A stretch of 53,970 nt of DNA from a virus (lineage: Duplodnaviria > Caudoviricetes), in the IMG/VR virus record IMGVR_UViG_3300025872_000072, positions 1-53,970 of that record, one strand, 5' to 3'. This document shows, piece after piece, positions 4,389 to 38,150 of the stretch. Below the pieces are notes generated by a model. The model ran no database searches and was not told where the DNA came from. It was given only the letters and a program-made list of their open reading frames with translations. A program made the translations under genes and the position numbers. Position 1 is the stretch's first letter. The number at the start of each line of letters is the position of its first letter.

Positions 4389-4417
4389 AGTATATTAATC
4401 ACCCTGATCAGGATGAA
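4389..4417 (-). promoter_or_regulatory. Promoter TTCATC-N17-TATACT for the sigma gene
   Basis: Shares GTGTTCATC...GGGTGATTA with the promoter at 7235-7263. Followed by a 5' hairpin AGGAGGA/TCCTCCT. Confidence 0.55.
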
Positions 4418-4631
4418 CACCCTTTTTTGCAACCCAGGCCAAATGATTTGCACGAACGATCTTGCGGTGCTCAACCTCTCGAGCGAAGTAGCAGGCCTCG
4501 ACCTCGAGCTCTGGGTGGTTCTTTCCCTTACGACGTTCACGTTCGATGTAGGAGACGAGCGACTGGTGTCGACCCTCGAGCTCCTCGTTAGGCATCAATG
4601 CGATGTCATCATTGGTCAGCTTACGGCTCAT
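4395..4631 (-). CDS. Hypothetical protein
   Basis: 78-aa ORF with an ATGA overlap to the groEL stop. Confidence 0.65.
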   Translation of the reverse strand: MSRKLTNDDIALMPNEELEGRHQSLVSYIERERRKGKNHPELEVEACYFAREVEHRKIVRANHLAWVAKKGVHPDQGD

Positions 4632-13120: not shown

Positions 13121-13653
13121 ACTGCTCCTCCTCCTCCTGGCATTGCGCCTACTGCGAAATGACGTCCTACACTCTTGTCATCATCAGAAGTTGTTGGCCC
13201 ACCCTCAGGTGAGGGTTCATAATCGAACTCTGTCTTTAGAATTTCCATGAACTTCTGTGCTGTATCATCGTCATACTTTGTCTGCAGGTAATCCTCGGTC
13301 CTATTGACTATAACCGATGGTATATCGAGCAGGGTGTCGTAATTTTTAACGATACGCATAACTTCAGTGGCAAAAATTCCCAGGTCGATTGGAGGCATTC
13401 CCGTCTTTTCTTCGCCCTCAGTTTCGCCCTCAGCCTCGAATAGGAAAGCAAGCGATGTTCGCCTGATGGATTCCGTTGCGGTCATTGACTGTTGGCCCTT
13501 GCCTACCTTAACAGCAGTACGCTCAGCATCCATGATGTGTCTGAGTATCTGCCTGTCGACTGATGCGTCCTCGGTGGGCTTAGACGATATGGATGACTCA
13601 GCATCCTCATCGGCCTCAAACATGAGCTTGAGGCTTGGTTTAAACAGGTTCAT
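13117..13653 (-). CDS. Probable virion/prohead protein with repeated L(M/L)FEA motifs
   Basis: 178 aa, acidic, with LKLMFEA and LAFLFEA. Confidence 0.6.
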   Translation of the reverse strand: MNLFKPSLKLMFEADEDAESSISSKPTEDASVDRQILRHIMDAERTAVKVGKGQQSMTATESIRRTSLAFLFEAEGETEGEEKTGMPPIDLGIFATEVMRIVKNYDTLLDIPSVIVNRTEDYLQTKYDDDTAQKFMEILKTEFDYEPSPEGGPTTSDDDKSVGRHFAVGAMPGGGGAV

Positions 13654-14357
13654 GATAGCACCTTCGCGGCCTTCTCGGCCTTTTCAAACCTTGCGTGCAC
13701 CTTTGTCCAGTTGATCTCTCGCATCATGGCAAAGACGTATGACTTTCTATCAGTGAGATAGTCACGATAATAGGCGTGCTCCCAGCAGTCCATCACGATC
13801 ACAGGAATGCAACCCATTGGAATGTTGCCATTGTGAAGGTCAACCATCACGTTGATGTAACGCTTGAGGAATGTGTTGTAGCAAGTGACTGCCCACCCAT
13901 TTCTTGAAGAAATGCTACATGCTATGAAGTCTTTCTGCCAGGCATCAAATGAGCCCCAGTCACGTTCAAGTCTCATGTATGTGAGTGAATCGGTTGTTAT
14001 TGATGACTTTGGGTCACCGATGTTATCGAAGTAAAGCCCATGCAGGAATGCTGCATTGAGATTATGAGACTCATCGAGCTTGAGGCAACGAAACTCACTG
14101 TGGTTCGGTGATGCGTCGTCGCGACTAACTGAGTCCAACTTTGCAGAAACTTCATTCAGGGTCTTTACATACCCGTCAAGGAGTTTCTGGTGCGATGCCT
14201 TTGTCTTCTCGGACAAAGACTCTGTGTTAGTCTCAAACGTCTTTGACTGTACGACGTAAGCCTCGTCGACCTTCTTTGGCTTGGCACTCTTTGGAATAAC
14301 CTCGCTTACGGCTTCACTCACAATCTTGCCAAGAAAATCATTCTGTCTGGTCGCCAT
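13650..14357 (-). CDS. sod: Fe/Mn superoxide dismutase with an N-terminal extension
   Basis: H..L..GYV, LHGLYF, WGSFDAW..DF, GWA, DCWEHAYY metal-ligand signature. Confidence 0.9.
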   Translation of the reverse strand: MATRQNDFLGKIVSEAVSEVIPKSAKPKKVDEAYVVQSKTFETNTESLSEKTKASHQKLLDGYVKTLNEVSAKLDSVSRDDASPNHSEFRCLKLDESHNLNAAFLHGLYFDNIGDPKSSITTDSLTYMRLERDWGSFDAWQKDFIACSISSRNGWAVTCYNTFLKRYINVMVDLHNGNIPMGCIPVIVMDCWEHAYYRDYLTDRKSYVFAMMREINWTKVHARFEKAEKAAKVLS

Positions 14358-14875: not shown

Positions 14876-14882
14876 TAACTAT
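14876..14882 (-). promoter_or_regulatory. Putative late promoter ATAGTTA
   Basis: Recurrent heptamer at the head of the 14857-to-11654 gene run. Confidence 0.55.
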
Positions 14883-15289
14883 CAATCCGTGTATCGTCTG
14901 ATTAACACACCGGCATTCTCAAGTATTCCCAAACCCGAAGCATCCCTGTATGGATTCATGTATATGACCTCTTGAATGCCTCCATTCACAATGGCCTTTG
15001 CACACTGCCTACAGGGCGAGTGTGTGAGGTACATCTTCTTTCGCTTTGGATTGTTGAAATCAAGTTTGATAAGAGCATTGATCTCGGCATGTATGAAACC
15101 TGATTGACCAGGCTCAGATGACTCAACCTCATTGGGTCCTCCTCTCTGGTCTCCATTGTAACCGACAGCAAGCACCTGGGTGTTGTCATCCGTCACTATG
15201 ACGGCTCCGACGGATGTCCGTTGGTCAACAGACCTCCTTGAGAGAATCATTGATGTTTCCATCCAAACTTGATCCCACGATGGTCTCAC
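14882..15289 (-). CDS. dCMP deaminase
   Basis: RPSW, VGAVIV, GYNG, HAEINA, SPCRQCAK. Likely GTG start at 15289 after GGAGAG (track start 15364). Confidence 0.93.
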   Translation of the reverse strand: MRPSWDQVWMETSMILSRRSVDQRTSVGAVIVTDDNTQVLAVGYNGDQRGGPNEVESSEPGQSGFIHAEINALIKLDFNNPKRKKMYLTHSPCRQCAKAIVNGGIQEVIYMNPYRDASGLGILENAGVLIRRYTD

Positions 15290-15377
15290 GTTTCTCTCCG
15301 TTGAATCAGGATAATCACAAGAAGTCGTGTTGGTTATTACCTTATCAATCGTGCTGTTTGTCACAGAGGGTCACACG

Positions 15378-16244: not shown

Positions 16245-16826
16245 TCAATTATGCCCGATGCCTGTGGTAAGAGGATGGCATGCCCAGCACATGGGCTCGT
16301 ATGTGTCTGCACCACCTACAGAAATTTCATCAAGTGATGGAACGCGCCTGTGTGTGAGCTGGGCATCATCGCCGCACGATACACAGACAGCCGTGCACTT
16401 TTCGACCTTCGTTGCGAATGGGAGGAGCTTCTCTACTTCTGTGAAAGATCGTAAGTTTGCTGAGAGTTCAATTGACGAGACATACACGGAGATTCCCATA
16501 CGAAAAACCTCGATGAGGGCATCTGCGATACCATCGATCATGAAGGCCTCATCTACTGCGACAACTTCGGGTTTCTCATTTCGAATGATGTGAAGGACTT
16601 CCTGTCCACTAGAGACAGCGATGGCCGCCATCGAGGCGCCTGAATGGGTTACGATTGCACTGTCAGAATACCTGCTATCAATCACAGGTTTAAAGCAGGA
16701 GACTTTCGTCTCACGGAGACGGTGTCTCTCAATCGCTCCAACTAATCTCGTTGACTTTCCTGACCACATTGGTCCCGTAAAAACAACGAACTCTCGATTA
16801 ATCCTTGCCCGACGACGTACGGCCAT
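16245..16826 (-). CDS. tdk: Thymidine kinase
   Basis: GPMWSGKS, KPVIDSRY, VDEAF, CVSCG, VGGADTYEPMCWAC. Confidence 0.93.
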   Translation of the reverse strand: MAVRRRARINREFVVFTGPMWSGKSTRLVGAIERHRLRETKVSCFKPVIDSRYSDSAIVTHSGASMAAIAVSSGQEVLHIIRNEKPEVVAVDEAFMIDGIADALIEVFRMGISVYVSSIELSANLRSFTEVEKLLPFATKVEKCTAVCVSCGDDAQLTHRRVPSLDEISVGGADTYEPMCWACHPLTTGIGHN

Positions 16827-17208
16827 AATCATCCTCCAGTCTAACGAACGTGTCCCTTGACCTATCACCGATCTCGATGATAGTTGAATCATCTACTGAC
16901 TTAATTCTATAAGGACACTCGGACTGTATAGAAAAGGTTTCACCTGCTACAATCACCACTGTTGAGTATGGATTTTCTGCGGTGTTTGAAACAGTGAAAG
17001 AGTTTCCAAAAGTGATCTCAACACAACCCTGAAGCACAAAGAATGACTTGTTCTTTAGCCTGTGATACTTGAGACTTGTCCTGTTTCCTGCTCTAATCTT
17101 TATGATCTTGCCCACCAGCGTGTCAGGTGTTGACCAGGTCCATGTCTCACCCCAAGGAGTCATCTCCTTCTTAGCGGGCCCTGCCCATCCTATCTTTGGT
17201 TCTGTCAT
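16798..17208 (-). CDS. Cupin protein (mannose-6-phosphate isomerase type II C-terminal-like)
   Basis: TPWG, KIIKI..G.RTSLKYH, G....I.....YRI. Several metal ligands are altered. Confidence 0.7.
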   Translation of the reverse strand: MTEPKIGWAGPAKKEMTPWGETWTWSTPDTLVGKIIKIRAGNRTSLKYHRLKNKSFFVLQGCVEITFGNSFTVSNTAENPYSTVVIVAGETFSIQSECPYRIKSVDDSTIIEIGDRSRDTFVRLEDDYGRTSSGKD

Positions 17209-18188
17209 AGTCCCCACCACTTCCAAGTCATCTCAAGACCTCTAGCTAGATCAACCTGCGAGACAAACCCAAGGTTTGTTGCGGCCTGCTCAGTGTTTGC
17301 CCGTGTGTGCTTAATGTCACCAACTCTGGCAGGAGCATTCGACACGTTGATCTTTCCGAATTTCAATCTGAACATGTCGAGAATTTCATTGTTTGAGTAG
17401 CTCCTGCCTGTCCCAATGTTGTATGCCTGCCCTCTAAACGGTTCAGTCCTCGTTGCAGCAAGCAGGTTTGCTCGAACGACATCACCAACAAATACCATGT
17501 CGCGTGACTGCTCACCGTCACCATCTGACCTGAGTGAGTTTCCATTTTTGACGCAGTTGCACCAGGCTGTTATTGCAGTTGCGTATGCAGAATCTCCATA
17601 CTGCCTGGGTCCGTAGACATTGAAGTATCGTAAAGAGACAGCATCAATACCGTGAAGTTCAACTGCGATTCTGATGTAGTCCTCGACAAAGAGCTTCTGT
17701 AGACCGTATGGAGAGCTGGGCTTTGGTCTTGAATCTTCGCCTGTTGGAATCTCAGCATCACCATAGAGTGCGCAAGTGGATGAGAACACGAGCCTCAGTG
17801 GAGACTTACAGTCACGTACAGCTTCAATCAACGAGAGGGAGCGTGTGCAGTTAACGTCTGTGGTCGCCGCAGGGTTCTCTACGGTCTGGCTTACCCTTGG
17901 GTTTGCAGCAAGATGGAAGACCACATCATACCTGCCATCACGAATCCTATCAAGGACATGCCTATCCTCAATGTCAGTCTCGAAGAAGACCACATCATCC
18001 TTCCCCCTCCTGTCATCAATGTGCATTGAAAGGGCAGAAATCACAGGCCTCACCCTCAGATCATCAAGATTCTCAAGCCTGCCTGTTACAAGACTGTCCA
18101 CGATATCAACAGTCCAGCCAGTCTCAACAAGCTTGTGAACAAGATTAGAACCGATGAAACCACAACCACCTGTCACAAGAGCGCGCAT
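17205..18188 (-). CDS. NAD-dependent NDP-sugar epimerase/dehydratase
   Basis: VTGGCGFIGS, HLAA, SPYGLQK (YxxxK), LRYFNVYGP, GDGEQSRD. Confidence 0.95.
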   Translation of the reverse strand: MRALVTGGCGFIGSNLVHKLVETGWTVDIVDSLVTGRLENLDDLRVRPVISALSMHIDDRRGKDDVVFFETDIEDRHVLDRIRDGRYDVVFHLAANPRVSQTVENPAATTDVNCTRSLSLIEAVRDCKSPLRLVFSSTCALYGDAEIPTGEDSRPKPSSPYGLQKLFVEDYIRIAVELHGIDAVSLRYFNVYGPRQYGDSAYATAITAWCNCVKNGNSLRSDGDGEQSRDMVFVGDVVRANLLAATRTEPFRGQAYNIGTGRSYSNNEILDMFRLKFGKINVSNAPARVGDIKHTRANTEQAATNLGFVSQVDLARGLEMTWKWWGL

Positions 18189-18228
18189 AGTACCTCCGAA
18201 CCAATCATACACGTCGTACGTGAGTTGA

Positions 18229-21200
18229 TTAGCACTCCACAAGTTTCATTCGATACATGTTTGTTGAGGCGCCCCAGCCTGAACTGTTCTCGACATCGGC
18301 AACCCAGATGGTATACGGCTTGATATCTCCTTCCTTGACGCTCCAGATCCTAATCCATGTGTTGGCATTGGTAGTGTCAGTCACCTTTGCTCGAGCAAAG
18401 ACCTTATTGTTCTTTGTGGTCTTCATCTCAATTGCAAGGACACAGAACCACACAACATCCTTCTTGCCATCCTCAAGATCACCAAGCGGTGGAATCTCTG
18501 CCTTGTGAATCTTACGCATGATCTCTTCAGGGAAGAGGACATGATGAGGGGCTGAGCCCGATATCTCGGCCTGCATTGCAACCTTCTCAACACGAGACCA
18601 GTCCTCAGTTCCTGTGGTCTCATCGATGAGCCTATCGACTAGTGGCCGAGGCTTCAACTTTGCAGCCTGCTTTGCGGTCATCCCATAGCGGCCCTTCTTC
18701 AGGTCACCATAGTTTCCGATGATGATGTCATGCAGTTGCTTGTGATTTGCAACCTTGCCGCTTATCATCTCATCGATTGAGCCGAATGCCTCCATGCCAA
18801 GGAGGGCTTCGAAGCATCGACGATTGAGCTTTGAGTGTCGCCAGCCACCGTCCTGGTTATAGAGAAGCTCATCAATATTCTTGTAGGGTCGATTCTCGAT
18901 GATCTCATCGACGGCGGCGCCACCAACACCCTTCAGTGAAGAAAGGGGTGGAACGAATGCCTGAAGCTTCTCGGACCATGACCATACGTTTCCTGAGGAG
19001 TTGATGTCAGGAGGCGAGATCTTGTAGCCAAGCTGCTTGATCTCAGACATCATTACCGCCATGCCTTCCACATTGTGGTTTTCTGTCTGTAGGCATGTGG
19101 CAAGCCAGTCATGTGGATAGTAAGTCATCAGCCAGGCACCGTAGTACGAGTCGATGGCATACGCAACCGAGTGGGACTTATTGAAGCCGTACAGTGAGAA
19201 GAATGCAATCGTATCGAACAGGTCAGTTGCCTGTTTCAGGTTGAGGCCTGAACACTCCATACAACCCTTGATGAACTTCTTTTCCAATGCCTCCTTCTCG
19301 TCGGACTTCTTGCCAAGGGAGGTGAGGTCCTTCTTCACCAGGGTCTTTCGCATCTTGTCAGAGTCGCCTGGCGAGAATCCGGCAAGCTTCTGCGCCAGCA
19401 ACATGAACTGTTCCTGGAAGACGATGAACCCACACGTTGGGCCGAGAATCTCCTCGATGACCGGATGATCGTACTTGATCGCAGCCTTGTTCTTCTTCGC
19501 CTCAACATATTTCTTGTGGACGTTAGCCTTTAGGGGACCAGGCCGGTAGATTGCCGTGACGGTCGAGAGGTCGATGATGTTCTCAACCTCAGCCGCCACA
19601 CAGAACTTCCTTGCGCCGTCCGATGTGAACTGGAAGATGCCTGGCCACTTGCCTTGCTGGTAGACATTATCGAACACCTTCCTATCGTTGGGTTCGACAT
19701 ATCGACAGTTGAGCTTGTCATCATAGAACTTCTTAATGTCGACGAATGTCGGTTCACAGGCAAGTTCACGGCGAAGAATTCGACGAATGCAGTCCTCGAC
19801 CATCTGCATTTGCTTCAGACCAAGGAAGTCGAACTTGAGGAAGCCGTTCTCTTCAAGGTTTCGAATGTTGACACCCTCGGTCCACGGAGTCTGGAGTTCG
19901 CCTCGGACAGCAATGAGAGGCATGTGCTTCTCAAGTTCGGGACAGACGAGGACACCGCCGGCATGACGACCGATCGATCGATTCATCATGAAGAGAGATC
20001 GAACCTGGGACTCGACGTGTGGGTACTTCTCCATGAACTCACGGTACCTTGCCGAGTGCTCCATACAATCCTCATGCTTGAGGATGAACATGGACTTCTC
20101 CATGTTTGGGTCACGTGACTTATCAGCAACCTCCCTCTCAAGGGGACCTGTGACGGCATTCACCTCATCAAAAGGAATCTGGTAGAACTTTGAGACGTCC
20201 TTCACCAGGGACTTGAGCTTGAGGGTGTTGAAGTTAGAGACCGGAATAACAGACTCATCACCGAAGATCTCACGTGCGGCATCAATCAAGGCATCACGGT
20301 TTCCGACATCCGTGTCGATATCAGGCCAACCTGCTCGATGGCGTCCAAGGAATCGTTCCCAAAGGAGGTCGTACTTTAGTGGATCGACATGGGTGATTCC
20401 AAGGAGGTAGTTGACAAGCGAGCCTGCACCGGAACCACGACCGGCGCCTGGCAGGGTTCGATTCTCAGCGACCTTGAACACCTTCTGGAGGGTCAGGAAG
20501 TAGTTCTCGAAGCCAAGATGCTTGATATCACCAAGCTCGAACTTGGCACGCTCGACATATTCCTTGTTGTTTGCCAATCCTTCATCGATAAGCGCCTGCT
20601 TCACAAGCCCAGTGAGCTGGCTCATTGCCGTGCTTTCACTCGTTGAGAATGATGGAAGCTTTGCCTTGTCCTCGAACCAGATCTCCTCGCAAAGGTTCCA
20701 GGCAATATCATGACCGCGCTCAATGGAGTCCTTTACGATACCCTCCTTGCCGCGATAGAACTCAAACTTTTCCCAACGCTCGAGGAACTCACCCCACATC
20801 TGGGTGTGGTTCTTTGGATAGAGTTCAGCCTTCAGCTGTTCCTTAGTCGGTAGGACGGGAGCAGTTCCGTCGTTCTTGATTCGACCTGGCTGAAGCTGAC
20901 GATAGATTTCACGAGATTCCCAGGCATCAGGCGACGGGTAGTGGGCATCCGAGGTCGTAAGAAGGTTGATGCCTGTCCTATCTGCAAGTTCAAGCATGCA
21001 CATGTTCGTGAGGTCCTGTGCACCAAGCTTATTGAACTGCATCTCAAGGAAGAAGTTCTCGCGGCCAACGCAATCTACGAACCGATCGACCATGTTCGTA
21101 AGCCTGCCCATGATGCGATTCAGCATGGCAGGATCAGTGATGAGATCGGGACTCAGCTGGTCGAACTTTGCTTCAGGAAATTCGCGGTAGATGAGACCAC

Positions 21201-21777
21201 TTGGATAGCCTCCAACACAGGCGGTGGAAACAACAAGGCCCTCACCATGTTCCCTGAGCATGTTGAAGTCAATACGAGGAAACTTGTAGAATCCATCCTT
21301 GAAGGACTTCTTGACCAGAGTGAAGAGGTTGGAGAGTCCGACACGGTTCTTTGCAACAACGACGAGATGATAACGTCGGTTTGGATTGTCTTCCTGCTCG
21401 GTACGAGTCTCATCGGCATCTTCGACGACGAGACCTGCCGCCTCCTCATCTTGGTCAGGTGCGGACTCGCCTGAGAGGTCTTCAAGCTTCACCTTGGAAG
21501 CCTCGTAGGTTCGCTTCCACTCCTTCAGGTCAGGAACAAAGTAGAATTCAACGCCATAAAGTTGACGGAACTGCTTGCCCTTGGACTTTACCTTCTTTGC
21601 ATGCGCATGCGCATGTGCAAGACCGTTGCCGTTGCCGTGGTCGGTCAAAGACCATGAATCGAGACCATTGTTCAGGCAGAAGTCGATGTGCTCAGCAGGA
21701 TTGCCGAGACCATCGTACGGTGAGAATGTCGAGTGATTGTGAAGGCTTGCATACCGTGTTGGCGCAGAAAAGTTCAT
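18229..21777 (-). CDS. dnaE: DNA polymerase III alpha subunit (family C)
   Basis: PHP domain (HNHS, LTDHG), GRGSGAGSL, PDIDTD, KFDFLGL, YGFNKSHS. No intein seen. Confidence 0.97.
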   Translation of the reverse strand: MNFSAPTRYASLHNHSTFSPYDGLGNPAEHIDFCLNNGLDSWSLTDHGNGNGLAHAHAHAKKVKSKGKQFRQLYGVEFYFVPDLKEWKRTYEASKVKLEDLSGESAPDQDEEAAGLVVEDADETRTEQEDNPNRRYHLVVVAKNRVGLSNLFTLVKKSFKDGFYKFPRIDFNMLREHGEGLVVSTACVGGYPSGLIYREFPEAKFDQLSPDLITDPAMLNRIMGRLTNMVDRFVDCVGRENFFLEMQFNKLGAQDLTNMCMLELADRTGINLLTTSDAHYPSPDAWESREIYRQLQPGRIKNDGTAPVLPTKEQLKAELYPKNHTQMWGEFLERWEKFEFYRGKEGIVKDSIERGHDIAWNLCEEIWFEDKAKLPSFSTSESTAMSQLTGLVKQALIDEGLANNKEYVERAKFELGDIKHLGFENYFLTLQKVFKVAENRTLPGAGRGSGAGSLVNYLLGITHVDPLKYDLLWERFLGRHRAGWPDIDTDVGNRDALIDAAREIFGDESVIPVSNFNTLKLKSLVKDVSKFYQIPFDEVNAVTGPLEREVADKSRDPNMEKSMFILKHEDCMEHSARYREFMEKYPHVESQVRSLFMMNRSIGRHAGGVLVCPELEKHMPLIAVRGELQTPWTEGVNIRNLEENGFLKFDFLGLKQMQMVEDCIRRILRRELACEPTFVDIKKFYDDKLNCRYVEPNDRKVFDNVYQQGKWPGIFQFTSDGARKFCVAAEVENIIDLSTVTAIYRPGPLKANVHKKYVEAKKNKAAIKYDHPVIEEILGPTCGFIVFQEQFMLLAQKLAGFSPGDSDKMRKTLVKKDLTSLGKKSDEKEALEKKFIKGCMECSGLNLKQATDLFDTIAFFSLYGFNKSHSVAYAIDSYYGAWLMTYYPHDWLATCLQTENHNVEGMAVMMSEIKQLGYKISPPDINSSGNVWSWSEKLQAFVPPLSSLKGVGGAAVDEIIENRPYKNIDELLYNQDGGWRHSKLNRRCFEALLGMEAFGSIDEMISGKVANHKQLHDIIIGNYGDLKKGRYGMTAKQAAKLKPRPLVDRLIDETTGTEDWSRVEKVAMQAEISGSAPHHVLFPEEIMRKIHKAEIPPLGDLEDGKKDVVWFCVLAIEMKTTKNNKVFARAKVTDTTNANTWIRIWSVKEGDIKPYTIWVADVENSSGWGASTNMYRMKLVEC

Positions 21778-21860: not shown

Positions 21861-22295
21861 CTACTCGATGTGACCGTAGTACGGCTCGAATAGGACCTTT
21901 CGCTCGTCAATGCAGCGCTTCAGGTAATCACGAAGCTCATCGTAACTCGTGGTCACCTTCACGCCTGACTGGGCCAGCATCAGGTTGAAGTTGCCAGTGA
22001 GACCCTGGGCAAAGTAAACGATCGGAACGTTTGCATTGTATGCCACACCTGCCTCGAAGATCGTGCCCATGTCCTTGTCTCGCGTGTTGCAAAGGACAAA
22101 GTCGGCAGTTCGAATGTGCTCAATGTTTCCCTTGAACGTGTCCTTCTGGACGTCAAGAGAAGCATTTGGTGGACAGATGAAGATCTTGCGTGGAGATGCC
22201 ACGTTGAGACCGAGGTCACCGAGAAGATTCTCAAGTGCCTCAACCTCTTCAAGAGCCTTGGGTGTGAACCAGCCAGATGCGAGATATACCTTCAT
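21861..22295 (-). CDS. Nucleoside 2-deoxyribosyltransferase / nucleotide N-hydrolase family
   Basis: VYLASGWF, DMGTIFEAGVAY, NLML. Confidence 0.88.
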   Translation of the reverse strand: MKVYLASGWFTPKALEEVEALENLLGDLGLNVASPRKIFICPPNASLDVQKDTFKGNIEHIRTADFVLCNTRDKDMGTIFEAGVAYNANVPIVYFAQGLTGNFNLMLAQSGVKVTTSYDELRDYLKRCIDERKVLFEPYYGHIE

Positions 22296-22306
22296 GTTTC
22301 TATTCC

Positions 22307-22876
22307 TCAGTAGTTGAGATTGATATTGTTTGCTGAGATTCCGAATTGTTCAACATTCGATCTGATGGACTCCAGCAACTCTTTCGTTCCTGCAAAGAAC
22401 ACCTGCGTTCCAACAGGAAACTTGTCAACCCCGAAAGGGGTCAAAGGAGTTGCTGGACGATCACTTTCCCTTGTGACCCACGAGATCCCACCTGCACTCT
22501 CAACATTCTTCTGGAACGGGTGGGGCCAACGAGAGTATGAAACAAACCATGTGCGAAGACCTGCATTGCGACGATAGTCAAGGACGCTGATACAAGCTCC
22601 GATGCCAGTTCCTCCGCATATGACTACGGCATTTTCGCAGTCAACATTCGGAAAACCATTCCCAGCTGGACCAGACAGGTCCACATCAGAACCGACATCA
22701 ACATCAAGCGGCCCCCCATGACGAGTGAGCACAGTTACCTCGCCATCGCTGGACTCAGCAACGGCAAAGTACCTGCCACCAATCACGACACACTGCCCAG
22801 GCTTCACTTCAGAATCAAGTGCATATGAGACTGTCATGAAATCAGGGCCAACATTCTTCCTTGTGACCTTTGCCAT
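22307..22876 (-). CDS. Ferredoxin-NADP reductase-like flavoprotein (PyrK-like, no Fe-S tail)
   Basis: PGQ, RYFAV, GPAGNGF, ICGGTGIG, FAGT. Confidence 0.75.
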   Translation of the reverse strand: MAKVTRKNVGPDFMTVSYALDSEVKPGQCVVIGGRYFAVAESSDGEVTVLTRHGGPLDVDVGSDVDLSGPAGNGFPNVDCENAVVICGGTGIGACISVLDYRRNAGLRTWFVSYSRWPHPFQKNVESAGGISWVTRESDRPATPLTPFGVDKFPVGTQVFFAGTKELLESIRSNVEQFGISANNINLNY

Positions 22877-22877
22877 A

Positions 22878-23414
22878 CTACACCCAAGCCTTCACGAGGC
22901 CTTGCATTGTTTCTCGCATCTCGCGGTCAAGGTCCTCATCATCAACATTCACCAGCACCGTCTTACACTTGGTCCACTTTGCAAACTGCATGTAGAGGTC
23001 ATGAATCCTTGTGATGTTGTCGTTGATGTTGTCATACTCATCCTTGACACCTGCATACGAGGATCGATGAGGAATGACGATGACCGTGCCAAGCCTTGCA
23101 TGACGTTCATCAAGCTGCCGAAGGAGCTCAAAGTCAGTCTGCCTTCCGAGGGCTTGAGAGTATATCCACTCGGAAGGCCAGGCGCGGTCGAGGATTACCG
23201 ATGAATCAGAGGACTCGAGGTACGAGGTGAAGTAAGTGTCCACATAGCGGATCGCATTGAGGAAGTAGCTTGGGTCCTTGAGGAAGTACTCGTGTTCCGC
23301 GGTATTCTTGAAGTACGGGATACCGAGTCGACGGCTAAGCTCCTTTGCCTGCTCGGTTTTTCCCGTGCGATCTGGACCATCGTAAATGATGATTCTTTGT
23401 GTTTGCTTATTCAA
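22878..23414 (-). CDS. dNMP (thymidylate-type) kinase
   Basis: IIYDGPDRTGKT P-loop and LDRAWPSEWIY. Confidence 0.85.
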   Translation of the reverse strand: MNKQTQRIIIYDGPDRTGKTEQAKELSRRLGIPYFKNTAEHEYFLKDPSYFLNAIRYVDTYFTSYLESSDSSVILDRAWPSEWIYSQALGRQTDFELLRQLDERHARLGTVIVIPHRSSYAGVKDEYDNINDNITRIHDLYMQFAKWTKCKTVLVNVDDEDLDREMRETMQGLVKAWV

Positions 23415-23423
23415 TTACAACTC

Positions 23424-24203
23424 CTAAAGAAGGACAACGTCAGAATTGCTTGCAGCTTCAGACTTTGTGATTGTAGTAGACAACTCGGTAAAGATCAAAA
23501 ATGTCAATCCATTTTGAGAACAAAAGTTTTCTGCAGCCTCAAACTTCATGAGATTCGACCTTGTCTTCACAAGCTTAATGGGTTTTGCCTCAATCAATAG
23601 TCCAAGCTCCTCAATCAAAAAGTCAGGACGATATGTCCTTTGTGTTTCTGCGTCCTTGTACGGAATGAGAAAGGGCTCATGACGCATTTTCTCAAGAGGA
23701 ATTCCCTCTCTTTCATAGTGCATCATGCAAGTCAATTCAAGCAAACTCCTAAAGTAGCAGCCTTTGTAGTATCCCTTTGTGCCCTTGCCTGAGAGCTTTG
23801 GTGCAGGTTTCCCATACATTGGGTTCCTTTCACCGGGATGAGACTTTTTGCTTGAGATCTGCGCAGCCCGCTCAGGTCCATACATCTCAGCATCAGACTT
23901 TCCCTTTCTAGCTCTGCACCATTCATGAGCCTTTTTTATCTGGTCATTTCTCCCATACATGGGATTCCTTTCGCCAGATGTGACAATGCTCATAGTTTTT
24001 ATGAACTCTTCGTGCCTTTTTGTGCCTTCTTCATCGCCATATCTTTCAACAAGAAATGCTAATGACATGTTCATGCCCTTTATTGCGTTGGCATTTCTAG
24101 TTCCTTTTGCATGCCCATGCTTATTAGAACATGACTTGCTGCAGAACTTTTTACCCTTATTCAAGGGGCCATCGCAAAATAAGCACTTTTTGACATCTTC
24201 CAT
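23424..24203 (-). CDS. Free-standing homing endonuclease (Zn finger, NUMOD3-like repeats, TnsA-like PD-(D/E)xK domain)
   Basis: CLFC...FCSKSC, two GERNPMYG repeats, FRSLLE...YRPDFLI...IEAKP. Visibly AT-richer than its flanks. Confidence 0.78.
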   Translation of the reverse strand: MEDVKKCLFCDGPLNKGKKFCSKSCSNKHGHAKGTRNANAIKGMNMSLAFLVERYGDEEGTKRHEEFIKTMSIVTSGERNPMYGRNDQIKKAHEWCRARKGKSDAEMYGPERAAQISSKKSHPGERNPMYGKPAPKLSGKGTKGYYKGCYFRSLLELTCMMHYEREGIPLEKMRHEPFLIPYKDAETQRTYRPDFLIEELGLLIEAKPIKLVKTRSNLMKFEAAENFCSQNGLTFLIFTELSTTITKSEAASNSDVVLL

Positions 24204-24206
24204 GGC

Positions 24207-24236
24207 GTATCCTCCTACCTTTAATTAGGAGGATAC
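24207..24236 (-). promoter_or_regulatory. SD-sequestering hairpin of the homing endonuclease
   Basis: Perfect 11-bp GTATCCTCCTA/TAGGAGGATAC stem containing AGGAGG, with late-like TAATTA at the loop. Confidence 0.8.
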
Positions 24237-24280
24237 AATCCACATGTGTCAGATCCCTCAAAAGAAGGCCAAACTATCTC

Positions 24281-25207
24281 TTACTTTCCCTCGACCTTAC
24301 GGATTCGTGCCTCGTAACCGATGGTCTTCCAGTCCTCGATCATCTCCTTCTCACCTGGGAAGAGGAGGTGGTCAGGAAGCTCCTGTAGCTCGAAGAACCA
24401 TGCGGACTTCTCGAACTTCCAGTCAGGCTGATTCTCAGGATTCGTGAGGGATGGAATGTGCTTGCCGGCGGAAGGGGCACGACCGGTGTTACCGAAGACC
24501 TTGTCGGTGTTGAGACAGGTCTTATTCGCACCCATCGCCTCGAGCTTGGTGAGGAGGTTTGCCCAACCGGAACCCTTCACCTTCTCAGTGCCGTCCTCGT
24601 TGAGGTGTGCCTTGATGAGCTCATGACGAATGAGACGACCGATGAGGTTGAGCTCGTCGGTGAGGCCGTTCTCACAGCGGCGGGCAAAGTAACCACGAAG
24701 TGCCATGAAGTTGACGACACAAACGAGGTTGGTCTGCTGGCCATGGAATGTCATGTAACGACAGTCCTGTGGAGGAACACCCGCATCAACCATCTGATCA
24801 TAAAGGGCCTGGGACTGCTGGACAAGCGCGGCTGCCTTCTCACCAAAGAGAGGGTGCTCGTAGATATTCTTGGGAATCGTCACACGATGCTCGATGGCCT
24901 CCGGCATCTGGGAAGTGACACAGTAAGCCCAACCAACCCGACCACGGGTAAACTGTGCCAGACCAACGCGGCTAATTCCCTCAACACGGATCTGGAAGTT
25001 GAGAGCCTCCTGTGGAACAGGAAGCGCGGTACCAGCAAGGACCTCCTTGCAGGCCTCAATGTGCTTTGGGTTGGTGTGATCGTATTCCTGGTTACGAAGA
25101 GAGTACCAGGTCTCACGGTACCAGTTCCAGAACATCTGGTATGGATTGTCAATGCCAGAATCGAGAAGGGTTACCTTGATATCGCCAAAGCCGTTTGAAA
25201 TGCTCAC
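24281..25207 (-). CDS. Divergent ThyX-fold (flavin-dependent thymidylate synthase-like) protein
   Basis: FQIRVEGISRVGLAQFTRGR, AGVPPQDCRY, T..V..VNF..L..YF..R. The ThyX motif RHR-x8-SxR is changed to RGR-x8-SQM. Confidence 0.75.
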   Translation of the reverse strand: MSISNGFGDIKVTLLDSGIDNPYQMFWNWYRETWYSLRNQEYDHTNPKHIEACKEVLAGTALPVPQEALNFQIRVEGISRVGLAQFTRGRVGWAYCVTSQMPEAIEHRVTIPKNIYEHPLFGEKAAALVQQSQALYDQMVDAGVPPQDCRYMTFHGQQTNLVCVVNFMALRGYFARRCENGLTDELNLIGRLIRHELIKAHLNEDGTEKVKGSGWANLLTKLEAMGANKTCLNTDKVFGNTGRAPSAGKHIPSLTNPENQPDWKFEKSAWFFELQELPDHLLFPGEKEMIEDWKTIGYEARIRKVEGK

Positions 25208-26145
25208 TTTACCTCCAGACTGTTGATAATTGAACGAAACTCGGATGAGTTGCCGTACATAGAAATGTTTCTTACGCCTTCAAGTTGTTCATTGTATGGG
25301 ACCCTTGGTGACAGGGTCATTACGCCATGGGATGCGTATTCAAGGGCATGCTTCGGTGAATCGTCAATTGCAAAGAGAACATGACCCTTAGTGTAGAAGT
25401 CTTGACCGTATAACCAACGATACTTCTCAGGACTGAATGCGACCCCATCGAATGGAACACCATTCTCCTGCAACCAGGAGAACGTTGAGCATTCAACCAT
25501 TGGGTTCTCTTGCGGTCGAGCCGTGAGGATCTGGACCCAGACTCCTCGACTCGAAAGGGCACGAAGCTCATTTACGAGCCAATCAATGGGACGAAGCCGC
25601 GCCATGCCACCCTCATTGATAAACTCATCAAATGCGCGGCTTGGTTCAAGCCCTGCATCAAGAAGCGCCTGGGTATTGTAGTACTCCTTTCCAGTAAGGT
25701 TAGTCTTTACACCCCTCTTCCCAAGCCAATCGTAGAAGTCAGTCCTGAAGTCTGCAATCACGTCGTCCATGTCAACGATGACGACAGGCTCACCTGACCA
25801 CTTCTTTGTCAGCAGCCTCTGTCGGATGCTGAGGTGGGAGTCACGTAGTTCCATTGCAAACTCAAGGTCTTCATGGGTAAAATCCCATGTGTTCAGGATT
25901 GCTGCGACATACCTGATGACATCAACCGACTCAAACAACATCTTGTTTCGATTCAGGAACCTGTCATCGATGTGATGCCTGAAGTTGATGCTGTTGGTAA
26001 GCTGGCCTACCTCATTGTGAAGCGAGAGGAGGAGGGTCTTTGTTAGTTCAAGCCTTCCCTCATCGTCCTTTCCAAACTGGCCAACAGTCTCACCAAAGAG
26101 ACGCTGTGAATAGAGGATGCCCTTTACTGTGTTGAAGTTCTTCAT
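25204..26145 (-). CDS. Fusion of an all-alpha NTP pyrophosphatase (MazG/dUTPase-like) and a HAD 5'(3')-deoxyribonucleotidase
   Basis: N-terminal LHNEVGQL...FESVDV; C-terminal VDMDDVIADF, LTARP, IDDSP. Confidence 0.75.
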   Translation of the reverse strand: MKNFNTVKGILYSQRLFGETVGQFGKDDEGRLELTKTLLLSLHNEVGQLTNSINFRHHIDDRFLNRNKMLFESVDVIRYVAAILNTWDFTHEDLEFAMELRDSHLSIRQRLLTKKWSGEPVVIVDMDDVIADFRTDFYDWLGKRGVKTNLTGKEYYNTQALLDAGLEPSRAFDEFINEGGMARLRPIDWLVNELRALSSRGVWVQILTARPQENPMVECSTFSWLQENGVPFDGVAFSPEKYRWLYGQDFYTKGHVLFAIDDSPKHALEYASHGVMTLSPRVPYNEQLEGVRNISMYGNSSEFRSIINSLEVK

Positions 26146-26178
26146 GATTCATTGTAATATGATAGAAGAACTGTTCAA
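26136..26178 (-). promoter_or_regulatory. Promoter TTGAAC-N16-TACAAT with a start-sequestering hairpin
   Basis: AGTTCTTC/GAAGAACT 8-bp stem pairs the promoter spacer with the first codons. The start is leaderless-type. Confidence 0.65.
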
Positions 26179-26605: not shown

Positions 26606-26836
26606 TCACAGGGGGTTGTTCTTGTAGTGTTCAATGATTCCAAGGATTGTGTCAAGGTCATCGTCCTCGCACTCCTTGTAATTTTTGCCCATATCATGGG
26701 TTATCATGTCCCATATGAAAGAGTAGGGATTGAGAGCGGGCAGCTCATGCACGTCTTCCATGGTCTTGAAAAGGTGGTCTCCCGCCTTTCTCACTTCGTT
26801 CTTGATCGTGTTGGAGACTTCGTTCGATAGAGGCAA
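26606..26836 (-). CDS. Hypothetical protein, paralog of 26848..27078
   Basis: Shared AG.HL...N....W......GK.YK.C..D....IL..IEHYKNNP. Confidence 0.7.
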   Translation of the reverse strand: MPLSNEVSNTIKNEVRKAGDHLFKTMEDVHELPALNPYSFIWDMITHDMGKNYKECEDDDLDTILGIIEHYKNNPL

Positions 26837-26847
26837 TTCTTTTCCGA

Positions 26848-27078
26848 TTAGCAGGGATTATTCTTATAGTGCTCAATGAGCTCAAGTATACGGGGAACTT
26901 CATCTTCATCACAATCCTTGTAGGACTTTCCGAGATGATGTCGAAGGCGTTCCCATACATGGGCAAATGAATTTCTAGTTGGATGTGATTCGGATGTAGG
27001 CAACTTTCCTGCGAGGTGTGTGCCTGCCTCATCGACCTTCATGCGAATCAATCTGGTACTCTCTTGTGTCAGTGCCAT
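26848..27078 (-). CDS. Hypothetical protein, paralog of 26606..26836
   Basis: Same motifs and same length (76 aa). Confidence 0.75.
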   Translation of the reverse strand: MALTQESTRLIRMKVDEAGTHLAGKLPTSESHPTRNSFAHVWERLRHHLGKSYKDCDEDEVPRILELIEHYKNNPC

Positions 27079-35497: not shown

Positions 35498-35881
35498 TCA
35501 GTAGCCCTCTTGAATACGACGCAGGATCTTGTTGTGCTTTGATCGATAAGCTTTCACAAACTCATCGGCATCAATTCCAAGTAGCACAAGGACTGACAGA
35601 AAGTAGTTCATCGCGTCTACGGTCTCTTCAAGGAACGCATTACGATCAAAGTCAGGAAGGTCCGTCTGCCTGTGCGGCTTTGAGTTCTTCAGATGCTGGA
35701 TCGCCTCGAACATTTCCTCAACACCACGTAGAGCAACGTCCTTAATCATGACCTGGTTTGACTTTATTGTTGGGTCAACAGGCCACTCACAATACGTGCC
35801 TGGCACATTCTCACGCAAAGCAAGCATAAACTGCTCACGTAATTCAAACATCTCTTCGAGCTTATCGATTTCCGAGCTCAT
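35498..35881 (-). CDS. All-alpha dimeric dUTPase / MazG-like NTP pyrophosphatase
   Basis: EEMFEA..HLKNSKPH, FLEETVDAMNYF, Y..K......R...GY. Confidence 0.8.
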   Translation of the reverse strand: MSSEIDKLEEMFELREQFMLALRENVPGTYCEWPVDPTIKSNQVMIKDVALRGVEEMFEAIQHLKNSKPHRQTDLPDFDRNAFLEETVDAMNYFLSVLVLLGIDADEFVKAYRSKHNKILRRIQEGY

Positions 35882-36068
35882 TTGCGGTCTCCAGCATGCG
35901 ATTAATGCTATCGTCAAGACCCTTTAGGAAATCCTGATCGGGATCGATCACATCACCGTTCAAGGTGAAACGCATGAGACGAAGATTGTCGGTCACGTCC
36001 GTTCCAGTCAGGATGGCCATCTGTATGAGCTTTGCAATTGAGGCAATTGAATTGTCAGAAAGTCGCAT
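35862..36068 (-). CDS. Small hypothetical protein
   Basis: ATG at 36068 with AAGGAG SD. Confidence 0.65.
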   Translation of the reverse strand: MRLSDNSIASIAKLIQMAILTGTDVTDNLRLMRFTLNGDVIDPDQDFLKGLDDSINRMLETANELGNR

Positions 36069-36108: not shown

Positions 36109-36900
36109 TTATAGCTGAACTCGTGGAACCCACCATGTCGTCCGTCCGTCCTTCGTCTCCTGGCAGACGACATCATCACCATTTGGATCTCGCTTTCGAC
36201 CGTAGACCAGCATTGAGTGCTTGCCCTCCTTGCCATCGAATCCCTTGTATGTGAGGATTGTTGAACCGCCGTTGAGATAGGCAGTTCGGATGACATCACT
36301 CACGGATTCACTAAGAAGCGTGAGCTGCTCATCTGTTGAATCCCCTACCTTTCGCCAAGGGCTCAGCTTTGCCAACCAAAGCGAGTCAGCCTTCAGGTAA
36401 TTCCCGACACCGGAGACAACGCCCTGGTTCATGAGAACCTCTGCTAGGGTTGCATCAGGATGCTTGCGAAGCCTCTCGATGAATGTACTGGGCTTCACGT
36501 TCTCGTTGAGCATGTCAGGACCAAGGGATGCCAACTTCAGCTTCAGGTCCTTTCGATTACAGAACTTCACAGTTCCAAAGTTGCGAGGATCATTGAAGTA
36601 GAGGTCACCCACAGATGTCTCAAACTTCACTCTAGCATGACGAGGAACATTCGACCAGGCTCCGGACATTCCAAGTGTGTTGAAGATGACAACATCAGCG
36701 TTCTTGAAAGTCCAGTAGATGAACTTGCCCTTGCAACCAACGCTCTCAACAGTTAGGGGAAACTGTGTGCTTGTAAGACCCTCAATCGGCTTCTTAGTGT
36801 AGCGACCGGACAACGGAGTTACTGATTGCAGTAGGTCACCCTCGGTAAGAAAGTTGTTGATGGAACGAACAAAGTTAGTGACTTCCGGACCCTCAGGCAT
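36109..36900 (-). CDS. Fpg/Nei DNA glycosylase (zincless finger)
   Basis: MPEGPEV, GKF, LGMSG, DPRNFG, LGPD, GVGNY, GRTTWW. No Cys4 finger. Confidence 0.93.
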   Translation of the reverse strand: MPEGPEVTNFVRSINNFLTEGDLLQSVTPLSGRYTKKPIEGLTSTQFPLTVESVGCKGKFIYWTFKNADVVIFNTLGMSGAWSNVPRHARVKFETSVGDLYFNDPRNFGTVKFCNRKDLKLKLASLGPDMLNENVKPSTFIERLRKHPDATLAEVLMNQGVVSGVGNYLKADSLWLAKLSPWRKVGDSTDEQLTLLSESVSDVIRTAYLNGGSTILTYKGFDGKEGKHSMLVYGRKRDPNGDDVVCQETKDGRTTWWVPRVQL

Positions 36901-37336
36901 GTACAGTCTCCTCTCGATACAGGTTCTTCAGATGATCGTGATAAGCGTTCAAGGCATGGTCCTTGGGGTGAACATTACGCCAATCACCAAGGATGAAGAT
37001 TCGATAGGCGTCCGAGGCATACTTGCCGACACCATGAAGCTCATTCACATCCTTCCACTGTGCGGAATGGAATTGTGCAGACATTCGCTTCAGTGTCTGA
37101 GTTCGCTTCTTCTGCATCCCAAGAGTCTTGATGGTCTCCTCGAGGTCGGCATCATTTGCCTGTGATAGGGCAAGAGCGTTAGGCCATTTCTGGAACAGAA
37201 CTTCAACGACAGGTTCCATCTGCTTCCTTGTCGTCAGATTAAGACACAGGCAACAGACGAGTATCTTCCACTCGTCTGGCCAGTACTTTTCCTGGATGAG
37301 ACCGAACTTGGGGGGATGCCACACGTTTGCCTCCAT
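36893..37336 (-). CDS. MBD4-like HhH-GPD mismatch DNA glycosylase (catalytic domain only)
   Basis: LIQE..W..W, LNLT, ELHGVGKYASDAYRIF, W..VHPKDHALN.YH closely follow the MBD4 glycosylase domain. Confidence 0.88.
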   Translation of the reverse strand: MEANVWHPPKFGLIQEKYWPDEWKILVCCLCLNLTTRKQMEPVVEVLFQKWPNALALSQANDADLEETIKTLGMQKKRTQTLKRMSAQFHSAQWKDVNELHGVGKYASDAYRIFILGDWRNVHPKDHALNAYHDHLKNLYREETVHA

Positions 37337-37370: not shown

Positions 37371-38150
37371 TCAGTAAGGAGTTCCGTGTCTCACGTGTCC
37401 CATGATTTCGTCAATGATTCCCGCAGTCTCATCGTGGTCACTTACGCTGTATGCACGATCATGATTCTTGAGGGCTTCATAGATCTCATAGTCGTTTCCA
37501 TTTGCCTGACACCTGTCTCCCACAAACCAGACTGTTTCATCTGGAAAGTGATTGAGAGCGTATGTCTTGTCCCAGCCTACCGGGTAGATATCGAATGAGG
37601 TAGATCCACCAAGCTTTGCAACAAGCGGAGTTCTAATCGTCATGAGACGAAGCTTCAACAGGGAAAGGATGCCAAGTCTGAAGTCATTTCTTGCATCGAA
37701 ACTCTCAAACCAGGTCCTGCTTGAGCGATCTGCTTCCCTGCCAATTGGACACCAGTTGACCATTGAGCTCCGTGAGGAAACAAAGTTTCCAGTCAGGGGA
37801 AGGTCTCGAACGTTCTCCATGACCTCACGCTGCATGGTATTGAGAATGAGGTGAAGGTCACGCCACTCCTGTCCCAGGTGATTCATCATAGACTTGGGGA
37901 CCGCCTGGGCCTGCCAGTGACCATTGACAAGTTTCCAGTGTTCAGTGCCATTGCACGGCAATGCTTCCACGCCATGCTCAAATGCCTCAAGCGGAACCTG
38001 CTCCTTGACATAGTCGAGTGCAGAACCTGTCACAATTCCAACCCTTGCAAAGGCAGAGAGTTCAGTAAGCTTCTGTAAGTTCTTTTGAGTGATTCCCTGA
38101 CGCGGTGGTGTCAAAGTTCCATCAAGATCAAAGAGTACAACGTCTCGCAT
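37371..38150 (-). CDS. Eukaryotic-type (HAD IIB) phosphomannomutase
   Basis: FDLDGTLT, R..MVNWCPIGR, GGSTSFDIYP.GWDKTY, GD....GNDYEIY. Confidence 0.9.
   Translation of the reverse strand: MRDVVLFDLDGTLTPPRQGITQKNLQKLTELSAFARVGIVTGSALDYVKEQVPLEAFEHGVEALPCNGTEHWKLVNGHWQAQAVPKSMMNHLGQEWRDLHLILNTMQREVMENVRDLPLTGNFVSSRSSMVNWCPIGREADRSSRTWFESFDARNDFRLGILSLLKLRLMTIRTPLVAKLGGSTSFDIYPVGWDKTYALNHFPDETVWFVGDRCQANGNDYEIYEALKNHDRAYSVSDHDETAGIIDEIMGHVRHGTPY

Follow-up and report, generated by a model that had tools for sequence, protein, structure and literature searches.

The routes by which phages are known to make modified pyrimidines begin with enzymes of the ThyA fold. The locus described here raises the question of what a divergent protein with the ThyX fold contributes to a giant phage that also carries a canonical thyX gene. 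The gene is located on the viral contig IMGVR_UViG_3300025872_000072 (53,970 bp in total, in the following referred to as the window), which has a CheckV completeness of about 16% and is a fragment of a giant phage genome, as its relatives reach 257-318 kb. An earlier annotation (the original prediction) had placed the ThyX-like protein at the center of a candidate pathway that would provide a non-canonical DNA base. We found that it represents a separate and highly conserved family, whose genes are tightly coupled to those of a kinase, a nucleotidase and a nucleoside 2-deoxyribosyltransferase (NDT), an enzyme that swaps bases. If this module does provide a new DNA base, a second enzyme fold and a recycling arm at the nucleoside level would be added to phage DNA modification, with relevance to the evasion of restriction and CRISPR, to sequencing bias in viromes and to the enzymatic synthesis of modified nucleotides. 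Added here are a case-control count of neighboring genes, two convergent fusions, a residue census of 114 family members, a tally of canonical ThyX in the carrier genomes and a high-confidence structural model.

The ThyX-like gene is part of a conserved module

Loci of the family were collected from IMG/VR with the family alignment and an alignment of distant relatives, and one locus of a bacterial metagenome-assembled genome (MAG) was added. After removal of repeated contigs (L011-L016, L022 and L026, which repeat contigs of L003-L010, and L071-L073, L075, L076, L078-L080 and L084, which repeat contigs of L028-L036) and of partial matches of at most 126 residues to ordinary Thy1 genes (L042-L046), 62 loci were kept, the window included. 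The open reading frames (ORFs) were clustered, profile hidden Markov models (HMMs) were made from the clusters, and matches within 6 kb on either side of the ThyX-like gene were counted. The control consisted of 80 loci around relatives of the canonical ThyX of the window.

An NDT gene was present in 59 of the 62 loci, compared to a single one of the 80 control loci. A 5'-deoxynucleotidase was found in 57/62 loci, 44 times as an HD/YfbR-type enzyme and 13 times as a dUTPase_2-like/HAD fusion, versus 8/80 in the control, all of them the fusion, and a small thymidylate-kinase-like kinase occurred in 58/62 loci and at none of the 80 control loci. In the control, a ThyX-like gene was also in range in six of the eight fusion loci and in the only NDT locus. 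All five clusters below 50% identity showed the association, which was also seen in several gene orders (NDT-HD-ThyX-kinase, NDT-ThyX-HD/dUTPase-kinase, ThyX-NDT-HD and fusion-ThyX-kinase-FNR-NDT). Thus, the module genes form an evolutionarily conserved unit and not a chance neighborhood. An FNR-like gene, originally suggested as a partner that possibly provides reducing power, was accessory only, as it occurred in 8/62 loci, all belonging to the clade of the window. The conserved partners are rather the NDT and the 5'-nucleotidase, both of which had been given too little weight.

In the window, the NDT, nucleotidase and kinase genes all lie within 3.4 kb, the nucleotidase here being of the HAD type and not of the HD type. 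The genes of this region are:

25204-26145, minus strand: fusion protein, 313 amino acids (PF06941, 2.6e-6; Foldseek matches to mdN, cdN and 3bwv; AlphaFold2 model)
24281-25207, minus strand: ThyX-fold protein, 308 amino acids (PF02511, 1.3e-15; AlphaFold2 model; Foldseek)
23424-24203, minus strand: TnsA/endonuclease-I-like homing-type endonuclease, 259 amino acids (PF08722, 1.7e-9; PF05367, 9.4e-6)
22878-23414, minus strand: small P-loop nucleotide kinase, thymidylate-kinase-like, 178 amino acids (PHROG 761, 1.2e-13)
22307-22876, minus strand: putative FNR-like NAD(P)H-flavin oxidoreductase, 189 amino acids (PF22290, DmmA_N, 1.3e-3; motifs)
21861-22295, minus strand: NDT family protein, 144 amino acids (PF05014, 7.1e-13; PHROG 7995, 4.6e-24)
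18229-21777, minus strand: DnaE-type DNA polymerase III alpha subunit, 1182 amino acids (tblastn to phage DnaE-like polymerases)

The five genes named in the original prediction, all on the minus strand and upstream of dnaE, as well as the separate thyX gene at 38150, were recovered at their positions by ORF, Pfam and PHROG analysis; the sixth ORF of the run, the endonuclease gene at 23424-24203, had been left out. An endonuclease between the ThyX-like and kinase genes was present only in the window, in L009 (same contig as L022) and in L017, and we therefore interpret the gene as a mobile insertion that lies outside the module. A promoter had been placed at 26151-26178. A promoter-like site does exist there (26178-26151), however, the region contained 7 such sites versus 5.1 +/- 2.2 in shuffled sequences, which is chance level. 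The start of the ThyX-like gene overlaps the stop of the upstream fusion gene by 4 bases. The dnaE gene follows directly downstream of the module and adjoined it in 8/8 of the first relatives, and DnaE is likely the consumer of the module's nucleotide pool.

Retained and lost residues of the ThyX-fold protein

The 308-residue protein matched Pfam family PF02511 (Thy1) with 58 bits (cut-off 24.8), and the match covered profile positions 47-187 only. The AlphaFold2 (AF2) model, built from an alignment of 114 sequences, reached a predicted local distance difference test score (pLDDT) of 96 and a predicted TM-score (pTM) of 0.93. The best solved match of this model in Foldseek was T. maritima ThyX, a flavin-dependent thymidylate synthase (FDTS; E of about 2e-9, TMt of about 0.7, about 200-225 columns, 17% identity), and the UMP/dUMP methylase PolB was matched as well. 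The C-terminal region of about 100 residues had no counterpart in the matched structures; it is confidently modelled and highly conserved. Searches of the PDB chains with single sequences of the ThyX-like and fusion proteins yielded nothing useful, and profiles were required. BLASTP found no similarity between the ThyX-like protein and the canonical ThyX of the window (best E 0.82). The earlier designation as a divergent ThyX paralog is therefore appropriate with respect to the fold, as supported by Foldseek and Pfam, whereas the term paralog is too loose: by sequence comparison, the protein belongs to a separate family and is not a recent paralogue of the canonical copy.

The motif change noted before is real, as KHR-x8-SARY of the canonical protein aligned with RGR-x8-SQMP, and so is the C-terminal extension. 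In addition, Ala68 replaces the His of the EH motif, a position at which A, V, S, G and Q are the commonest residues in the family. In ThyX, this His has its role at the folate/flavin site. The 114 family members were then compared residue by residue, with equivalences taken from a profile alignment to M. tuberculosis ThyX. Five residues were kept almost throughout, namely R80 (113), R88 (114), S99 (113), R150 (114) and R177 (114). R150 we take to be equivalent to the phosphate binder R147 of T. maritima and R172 of M. tuberculosis. R80, R88, S99 and R177 aligned with R87, R95, S105 and R199, which are listed as dUMP contacts of M. tuberculosis ThyX (PMC6514825). In contrast, the His residues of the EH and RHR motifs were retained in 0/114 members, and the same was true for Arg and Tyr at the R107/Y108 positions, which correspond to R90/Y91 of T. 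maritima in the SxRY motif. Tyr91 and Ser88 of ThyX have been described as strictly conserved and critical, Tyr91 acting with the aid of R90 as the acid for the flavin-carbinolamine step (PMC11940539). Because the dUMP contacts are kept and the residues of both His positions and of the Arg-Tyr pair are lost, the protein looks fit to hold a pyrimidine nucleotide in the manner of ThyX and does not look fit for the known steps of methylene transfer. Features newly invariant in the family are Y151, D184, H107, H155 and a GNTGR motif in the C-terminal extension, and some 50 positions, including those of the extension, are nearly invariant.

Distribution of the ThyX-like family

A word-indexed search at an E-value of 0.001 or better retrieved at least 157 clusters at 90% identity, and among the 120 clusters listed the identity was 45-93%. 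The members are nearly all of about 308 residues and metagenomic, derived from freshwater, gut and other viromes; a source name, either 'hypothetical protein' or 'ThyX', is attached to few of them. Among representatives at 50% identity, a full HMMER scan gave 14 with E <1e-30, and its fringe consisted of full-length relatives with 25-32% identity that share the C-terminal extension. In the viral structure library, full-length matches occurred only in two uncultured phages. The window's phage itself was listed for 24 sequencing runs, mostly labelled freshwater metagenomes, at the level of contigs.

Among cultured phages, tblastn with the ThyX-like protein produced partial matches to ordinary ThyX only, and 0/40 records reached a coverage of at least 80%. 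One partial match was in Eggerthella phage EL753P1, which has no deoxyribosyltransferase or HD gene nearby, and another in a Nitratidesulfovibrio phage record that is without annotation. Near-identical DNA was not found in the cultured-phage collection. In bacterial and archaeal genomes a single locus was found in a Bacilli MAG, where the contig measures 67 kb; since it has the same order NDT-HD-ThyX-like-kinase, this contig probably is phage DNA. No description of a function of the family, or of its link to NDT and nucleotidase, was found in the literature, most subscription journals being outside the search. The family is a separate and uncharacterised one.

Convergent fusions of pyrophosphatase-like and nucleotidase domains

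The C-terminal half of the window's fusion protein (about residues 118-300) is a HAD NT5C-type 5'(3')-deoxyribonucleotidase with a DMDDV motif (PF06941, 27.9 bits, cut-off 24.8). Foldseek matched this domain to human mdN and cdN and to 3bwv with TMt 0.7-0.8, the profile search against the PDB also retrieved 3bwv (1.8e-4), and D125 and D127 were invariant in 10/10 sequences. The N-terminal part of about 115 residues is a four-helix domain, modelled at pLDDT 55-80 in an AF2 model with pLDDT 84. Its sole recurring Pfam match was dUTPase_2, the all-alpha family of dimeric dUTPases (PF08761), the top match for 7/10 homologous N-terminal domains with E-values of 3.6e-4 to 0.013 and 16-21 bits, which is below the cut-off of 22.9.

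The nucleotidase of most lineages is instead of the HD/YfbR type (PF12917, 1.9e-16), and one clade has this HD nucleotidase joined to a trimeric dUTPase in a single protein (PF12917, 1.4e-11, and PF00692, 4.3e-15). Two unrelated pairs of folds thus appear to combine the same two activities, from deoxynucleoside triphosphate (dNTP) to deoxynucleoside monophosphate (dNMP) and from dNMP to deoxynucleoside. That such fusions arose twice from unrelated folds suggests, more strongly than any other observation, that the module also serves to degrade a nucleotide as far as the nucleoside, on which the NDT would then act. The window was found to have one more small ORF that is all-alpha dUTPase_2-like (E 1.2e-3).

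The NDT assignment was supported by PF05014 (49 bits, cut-off 28.8) and by PDB entry 6evs (1.2e-10), and the catalytic Glu of the D-x-G-T-x-x-E motif was aligned, with 'GTIFEAG' under 'GTAWELG' of 6evs. For the kinase, Pfam matches were weak, and the PDB search gave weak P-loop matches only, so that the protein may be either a dNMP kinase or a deoxynucleoside kinase. Evidence for the identity of the FNR-like protein was weak as well, consisting of PF22290 at 1.3e-3 and a 96%-identical protein that its source names 'ferredoxin-NADP reductase'; 12 sequences shared the motifs PGQ, GP.G.GF and GGTG as well as a Tyr at the C-terminus. A complex prediction for the ThyX-like and FNR-like proteins scored 0.01 against a mark of 0.32, which is evidence neither way.

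Cultured relatives and known systems

The module was found in a cultured phage by means of the window's NDT. Geobacillus phage GR1 (OK896991) encodes, at 23.9-30.2 kb, in this order an NDT, a thioredoxin, an HD protein, a glycosyltransferase, a 145-residue P-loop protein, an RNase H, a nitroreductase-type NAD(P)H flavin reductase and a 322-residue 'FAD-dependent thymidylate synthase', followed by a PHP polymerase. The four module parts were recognised by the module HMMs (1.5e-42, 5e-50, 1.3e-14 and 3.6e-23), and hhalign aligned the 322-residue protein with the ThyX-like family at 98.8% (E 4.3e-17, 195 columns). GR1 thus shares with the window the NDT, the nucleotidase and the small P-loop kinase as well as a ThyX-like protein, which is encoded shortly upstream of a PHP/DnaE polymerase. 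Beside its ThyX-like gene, where the window has the FNR-like gene, GR1 carries a flavin reductase gene whose product has another fold. GR1 differs in that RHR is kept while SxRY is lost, that the nucleotidase is HD and not HAD, and that a glycosyltransferase lies inside the block. The literature found on GR1 concerns its endolysin, and no analysis of its DNA was found therein; as a carrier of the module that is cultured on G. stearothermophilus, the phage makes the question testable now.

Canonical ThyX/FDTS (EC 2.1.1.148), such as TM0449 and M. tuberculosis ThyX, has the same fold as the window's family, in which its dUMP-contact residues are kept, but differs by the presence of RHR, SxRY and the EH His, where the window's protein has RGR, SQMP and no His, by the lack of the extension of about 100 residues and by its neighbors. 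The functional logic of the module has real precedents, as originally proposed. In T4, gp56, gp42 and gp1 beside td combine a thymidylate synthase homologue with a dedicated dNMP kinase and the removal of the competing canonical nucleotide, and the hydroxymethyluracil and uracil phages of B. subtilis employ a dTTPase-dUTPase, a dTMP nucleotidase, a dUMP hydroxymethylase and an hmdUMP kinase. The logic is the same, but the hydroxymethylases of these systems have the ThyA fold, and we know of no deoxyribosyltransferase or pyrophosphatase-nucleotidase fusion in them. The ThyA homologues of RB69 and DLP3 were reported to synthesise 5-hydroxy-dCMP in a flavin- and O2-dependent manner and to work together with a cognate dNMP kinase (PMC13326640). 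They resemble the proposed module in being thymidylate synthase homologues with flavin/O2 chemistry that lacks one-carbon transfer and with a cognate dNMP kinase acting before replication, but differ in the ThyA fold, the catalytic Cys, the dCMP substrate and the later glycosylation, and no NDT or nucleotidase partner is described in the available part of that report (PMC13326640).

A further family invites comparison. In Bacillus phage SP-15, gp9, a normal Thy1 protein, was proposed by Kropinski et al. to be the thymidylate synthase and gp130 a hydroxymethyl-dUMP synthase (PMC5977210). In the SP-15 record, gp130 is located two genes after a tandem NDT (gp127) and adjoins a short-chain reductase, and gp9 adjoins a deoxynucleoside kinase. 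Homologues of gp130 were identified in Carin-5 (gp049, 43% identical), Streptococcus phage GXN1 (40%), YerA41 (gp081) and some Vibrio phages. The gene order in GXN1 is NDT-HD-gp130-like, and in YerA41 gp086 (L177:7380-7916), annotated as a 'mannosyltransferase', matched the NDT HMM at 9.6e-17 at a distance of 2.3 kb from gp081. The DNA of SP-15, YerA41 and Carin-5 has been reported to contain hypermodified thymidine, to which a pentyl-type linker, phosphate and sugars are attached (PMC12686479; PMC13697223). The gp130 family is similar to that of the window in being divergent and Thy1-derived, in lacking the ThyX motifs and in its proximity to NDT and/or HD genes in SP-15, GXN1 and YerA41. It differs in its length of about 410 residues, compared to about 310, and in that modified DNA is reported for SP-15, YerA41 and Carin-5 and for no carrier of the window's family. 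Beyond the shared fold, no homology between the two families was detected, as the hhalign probability was 0.75% for the SP-15 protein and 2.85% for the GXN1 homologue, and a single common family was rejected on this basis.

Other thymidylate enzymes in the carrier genomes

Beyond the module, the window encodes further enzymes of nucleotide metabolism, the thymidine kinase and dCMP deaminase being given for context only:

38150-38782, minus strand: canonical ThyX, 210 amino acids, with KHR...SARY (PF02511, 3.5e-37)
16245-16892, minus strand: thymidine kinase (PF00265, 2.1e-35)
14882-15364, minus strand: dCMP deaminase, supply of dUMP (PF00383, 4.4e-20)
40583-43075: ribonucleotide reductase

Both a canonical ThyX and the ThyX-like gene were present in all four jumbo records (the window, G001, G002 and G006). 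The thymidine kinase was also found in the jumbo relatives G001 and G002 and was absent from the three small phages checked, and thyA was absent from all nine other genome records that were checked. The 188-kb genome G007 (behind L054), which has terminal repeats, encodes two divergent Thy1-type genes (17846-18289 and 84563-85006; E 5e-10 and 7e-6), whereas it lacks a strong canonical ThyX.

Possible functions of the module

The original prediction held that a flavin-dependent enzyme makes a non-canonical pyrimidine nucleotide. The conserved module and the residue pattern are in line with this claim, the product is conjectural, and an ordinary dTMP synthase is possible as well. The reading that we favor, and to which we give about equal chances of being right or wrong, is that a C5-modified pyrimidine dNMP is produced and phosphorylated by the module, which would also remove the canonical nucleotide that competes with it. 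The fold, the residue pattern and the conserved gene association are shown by the data, whereas flavin use, substrate and product are inferred in the following, and so are the direction in which each step runs and the entry of the product into DNA. The ThyX-fold flavoenzyme would bind a pyrimidine dNMP, with a uracil nucleotide as the most likely substrate, because the Arg that contacts O4 is invariant, both pyrophosphatase domains are dUTPase-like and the HAD domain resembles mdN/cdN. It would then add to C5 a group other than a plain methyl derived from folate, for example a hydroxymethyl or hydroxyl group or a longer carbon unit. The dedicated small kinase would phosphorylate the product, which would enter the triphosphate pool and be used by the phage DnaE. 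At the same time, the dUTPase-like pyrophosphatase/5'-deoxynucleotidase fusion would convert competing dTTP and/or dUTP to the nucleoside, from which the NDT would remove the base and move the deoxyribose to another base, so that the sugar is saved and the unwanted base lost. In the clade of the window, the FNR-like reductase may supply reduced flavin, and the thymidine kinase may return nucleosides made by the NDT to the pool.

A more specific form of the favored reading, which we regard as rather improbable, is that the enzyme is a folate-independent flavoenzyme. It would hold a uracil nucleotide over the flavin as ThyX does and either hydroxylate C5 with reduced flavin and O2 or oxidise the methyl group of dTMP to yield hydroxymethyl-dUMP, in combination with a loop that strips thymine. 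A folate-independent reaction would fit because the residues of methylene transfer are selectively lost, and the enzymes of RB69 and DLP3 show by analogy that thymidylate synthase homologues can abandon one-carbon chemistry altogether (PMC13326640). For hydroxylation, the reduced flavin would come from the FNR-like or nitroreductase-like neighbor; in the dTMP variant, oxidised flavin would take a hydride from the methyl group, and the resulting methylene would be hydrated to hydroxymethyl-dUMP. In the loop, the fusion protein, the NDT and the thymidine kinase would strip thymine from host-derived thymidine nucleotides and re-issue the deoxyribose as deoxyuridine. If correct, hundreds of uncultured phages of lakes, guts and soil would possess a novel enzymatic route by which a modified pyrimidine for DNA is made.

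Several observations weigh against the production of a modified nucleotide for DNA. The jumbo carriers retain canonical ThyX, and the window additionally has the thymidine kinase and dCMP deaminase, which argues against a full exclusion of thymine; partial replacement, as in SP-15, or cytosine as the target would reconcile the module with the retained thymidylate genes. The fusion protein would also destroy dUMP, if this is the substrate. The GT2 glycosyltransferases of G001 and G002 lie more than 100 kb from the module and none was found in the three small phages, and glycosylation was rejected as a general partner of the module on this basis. No NDT or HD match was detected within 4 kb of the gp130 homologue of Carin-5, and the link to hypermodified thymine is in any case one by analogy of neighbors and not by family membership. 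As to the neighborhood counts, the HMMs were built from the case loci, which favors case over control, and many of the 62 loci are close relatives that make up five clusters at 50% identity.

The presence of the ThyX-like gene beside a normal thyX, one of the original observations, applies only to the giant phages; in five of the nine other genomes (37-67 kb, 92-100% complete) it is the sole Thy1-family gene, and no thyA is present. This also fits a plain, if odd, thymidylate synthase, a divergent enzyme that converts dUMP to dTMP, with neighbors that remove dUTP, salvage deoxyribose and phosphorylate dTMP. Such a role would agree with the thymidylate-kinase-like nature of the adjacent kinase, with the invariant dUMP-contact arginines and with public annotations that name relatives 'thymidylate synthase', and the invariant pair R150-Y151 (114/114) could replace the lost R90-Y91 pair. 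However, the loss of the equivalents of Tyr91 and Arg90 and of the EH and RHR His in 114/114 members is difficult to reconcile with methylation, given the importance of Tyr91 (PMC11940539), four jumbo genomes have kept a canonical ThyX in addition, and nucleotidase and NDT are rare near canonical ThyX (8/80 and 1/80). We therefore consider an ordinary synthase unlikely; should it nevertheless be one, a thymidylate synthase that works without the 'essential' Tyr, Arg and His would require a revision of the ThyX mechanism.

Less probable still appears a dCMP target, in which the enzyme would make a 5-substituted dCMP as in T4, the kinase acting as gp1 and the pyrophosphatase domain as the dCTPase gp56. 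That jumbo genomes encode a canonical ThyX along with the ThyX-like protein mirrors td and gp42 of T4, and this target would explain the retained thymidylate synthesis. New dCMP derivatives are also the products of the RB69 and DLP3 homologues with their cognate kinase (PMC13326640). The Arg predicted to contact O4 of uracil is, however, invariant (R177, 114/114), the pyrophosphatase domains are dUTPase-like and the HAD domain is similar to mdN/cdN, several structures of which contain uracil or thymine ligands. There is likewise only a slim chance that the module works at the level of nucleosides or free bases and does not feed DNA, either by re-balancing pools from degraded host DNA or by producing a free modified base or nucleoside, with the ThyX-fold protein as a binding or non-redox part. 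The NDT is indeed the tightest partner, ahead of the kinase, the fusion protein drives nucleotides to nucleosides, and the flavin-contact His residues are gone. On the other hand, the kinase is adjacent in 58/62 loci, the arginines that bind phosphate and base are invariant, the module lies directly next to the replicative polymerase in the clade of the window and in GR1, and the nearly invariant positions, including those in the extension, argue for catalysis.

Additional observations in the window and its relatives

Phages of 57-59 kb carry three genes directly after the ThyX-like and kinase genes (L028:9291-12359 and L030:9446-12811, and likewise in L029, L034-L036, L051, L070 and L074). 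They encode a choline/ethanolamine-kinase-like kinase of the APH fold (PF01633, 2e-13 to 2e-15), a MobA-type nucleotidyltransferase (PF12804, 3e-12) and a BCCT betaine/choline transporter (PF02028, 1e-102), and represent a lic-like choline-activation set inside the phage replication block, which may serve to decorate either DNA or the surface of the host. Upstream of the module, tandem ORFs of 76 residues at 26606-26836 and 26848-27078, which are paralogues of each other, are conserved in several relatives.

The dnaE gene was matched in two or three separated pieces in some relatives (L005:12602-17425, L007:13457-19788 and L027:12277-14297), suggesting inteins or inserted mobile genes within the polymerase gene. 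Directly after dnaE, at 17205-18242, the window has a gene of the GDP-mannose-4,6-dehydratase/epimerase family, which is kept there in relatives; among the 46 window ORFs scanned, none encoded a glycosyltransferase.

A second homing-type endonuclease gene of the GIY-YIG/NUMOD3 type (38763-39524) is located upstream of canonical thyX, so that both endonucleases flank genes of nucleotide metabolism. The canonical thyX and a phosphomannomutase gene (37371-38150) are adjoined by genes for an Fpg/Nei-type DNA glycosylase (PF01149, PF06831) and an HhH-GPD glycosylase-like ORF (36109-37336), which are genes for the repair of oxidised bases and unusual in a phage. Together, the stretches 3555-6232, 13650-14357 and 35498-35917 of the window further encode a sigma-70 family factor, a GroEL-type chaperonin, an Fe/Mn superoxide-dismutase-like protein and the additional dUTPase_2-like ORF mentioned above.

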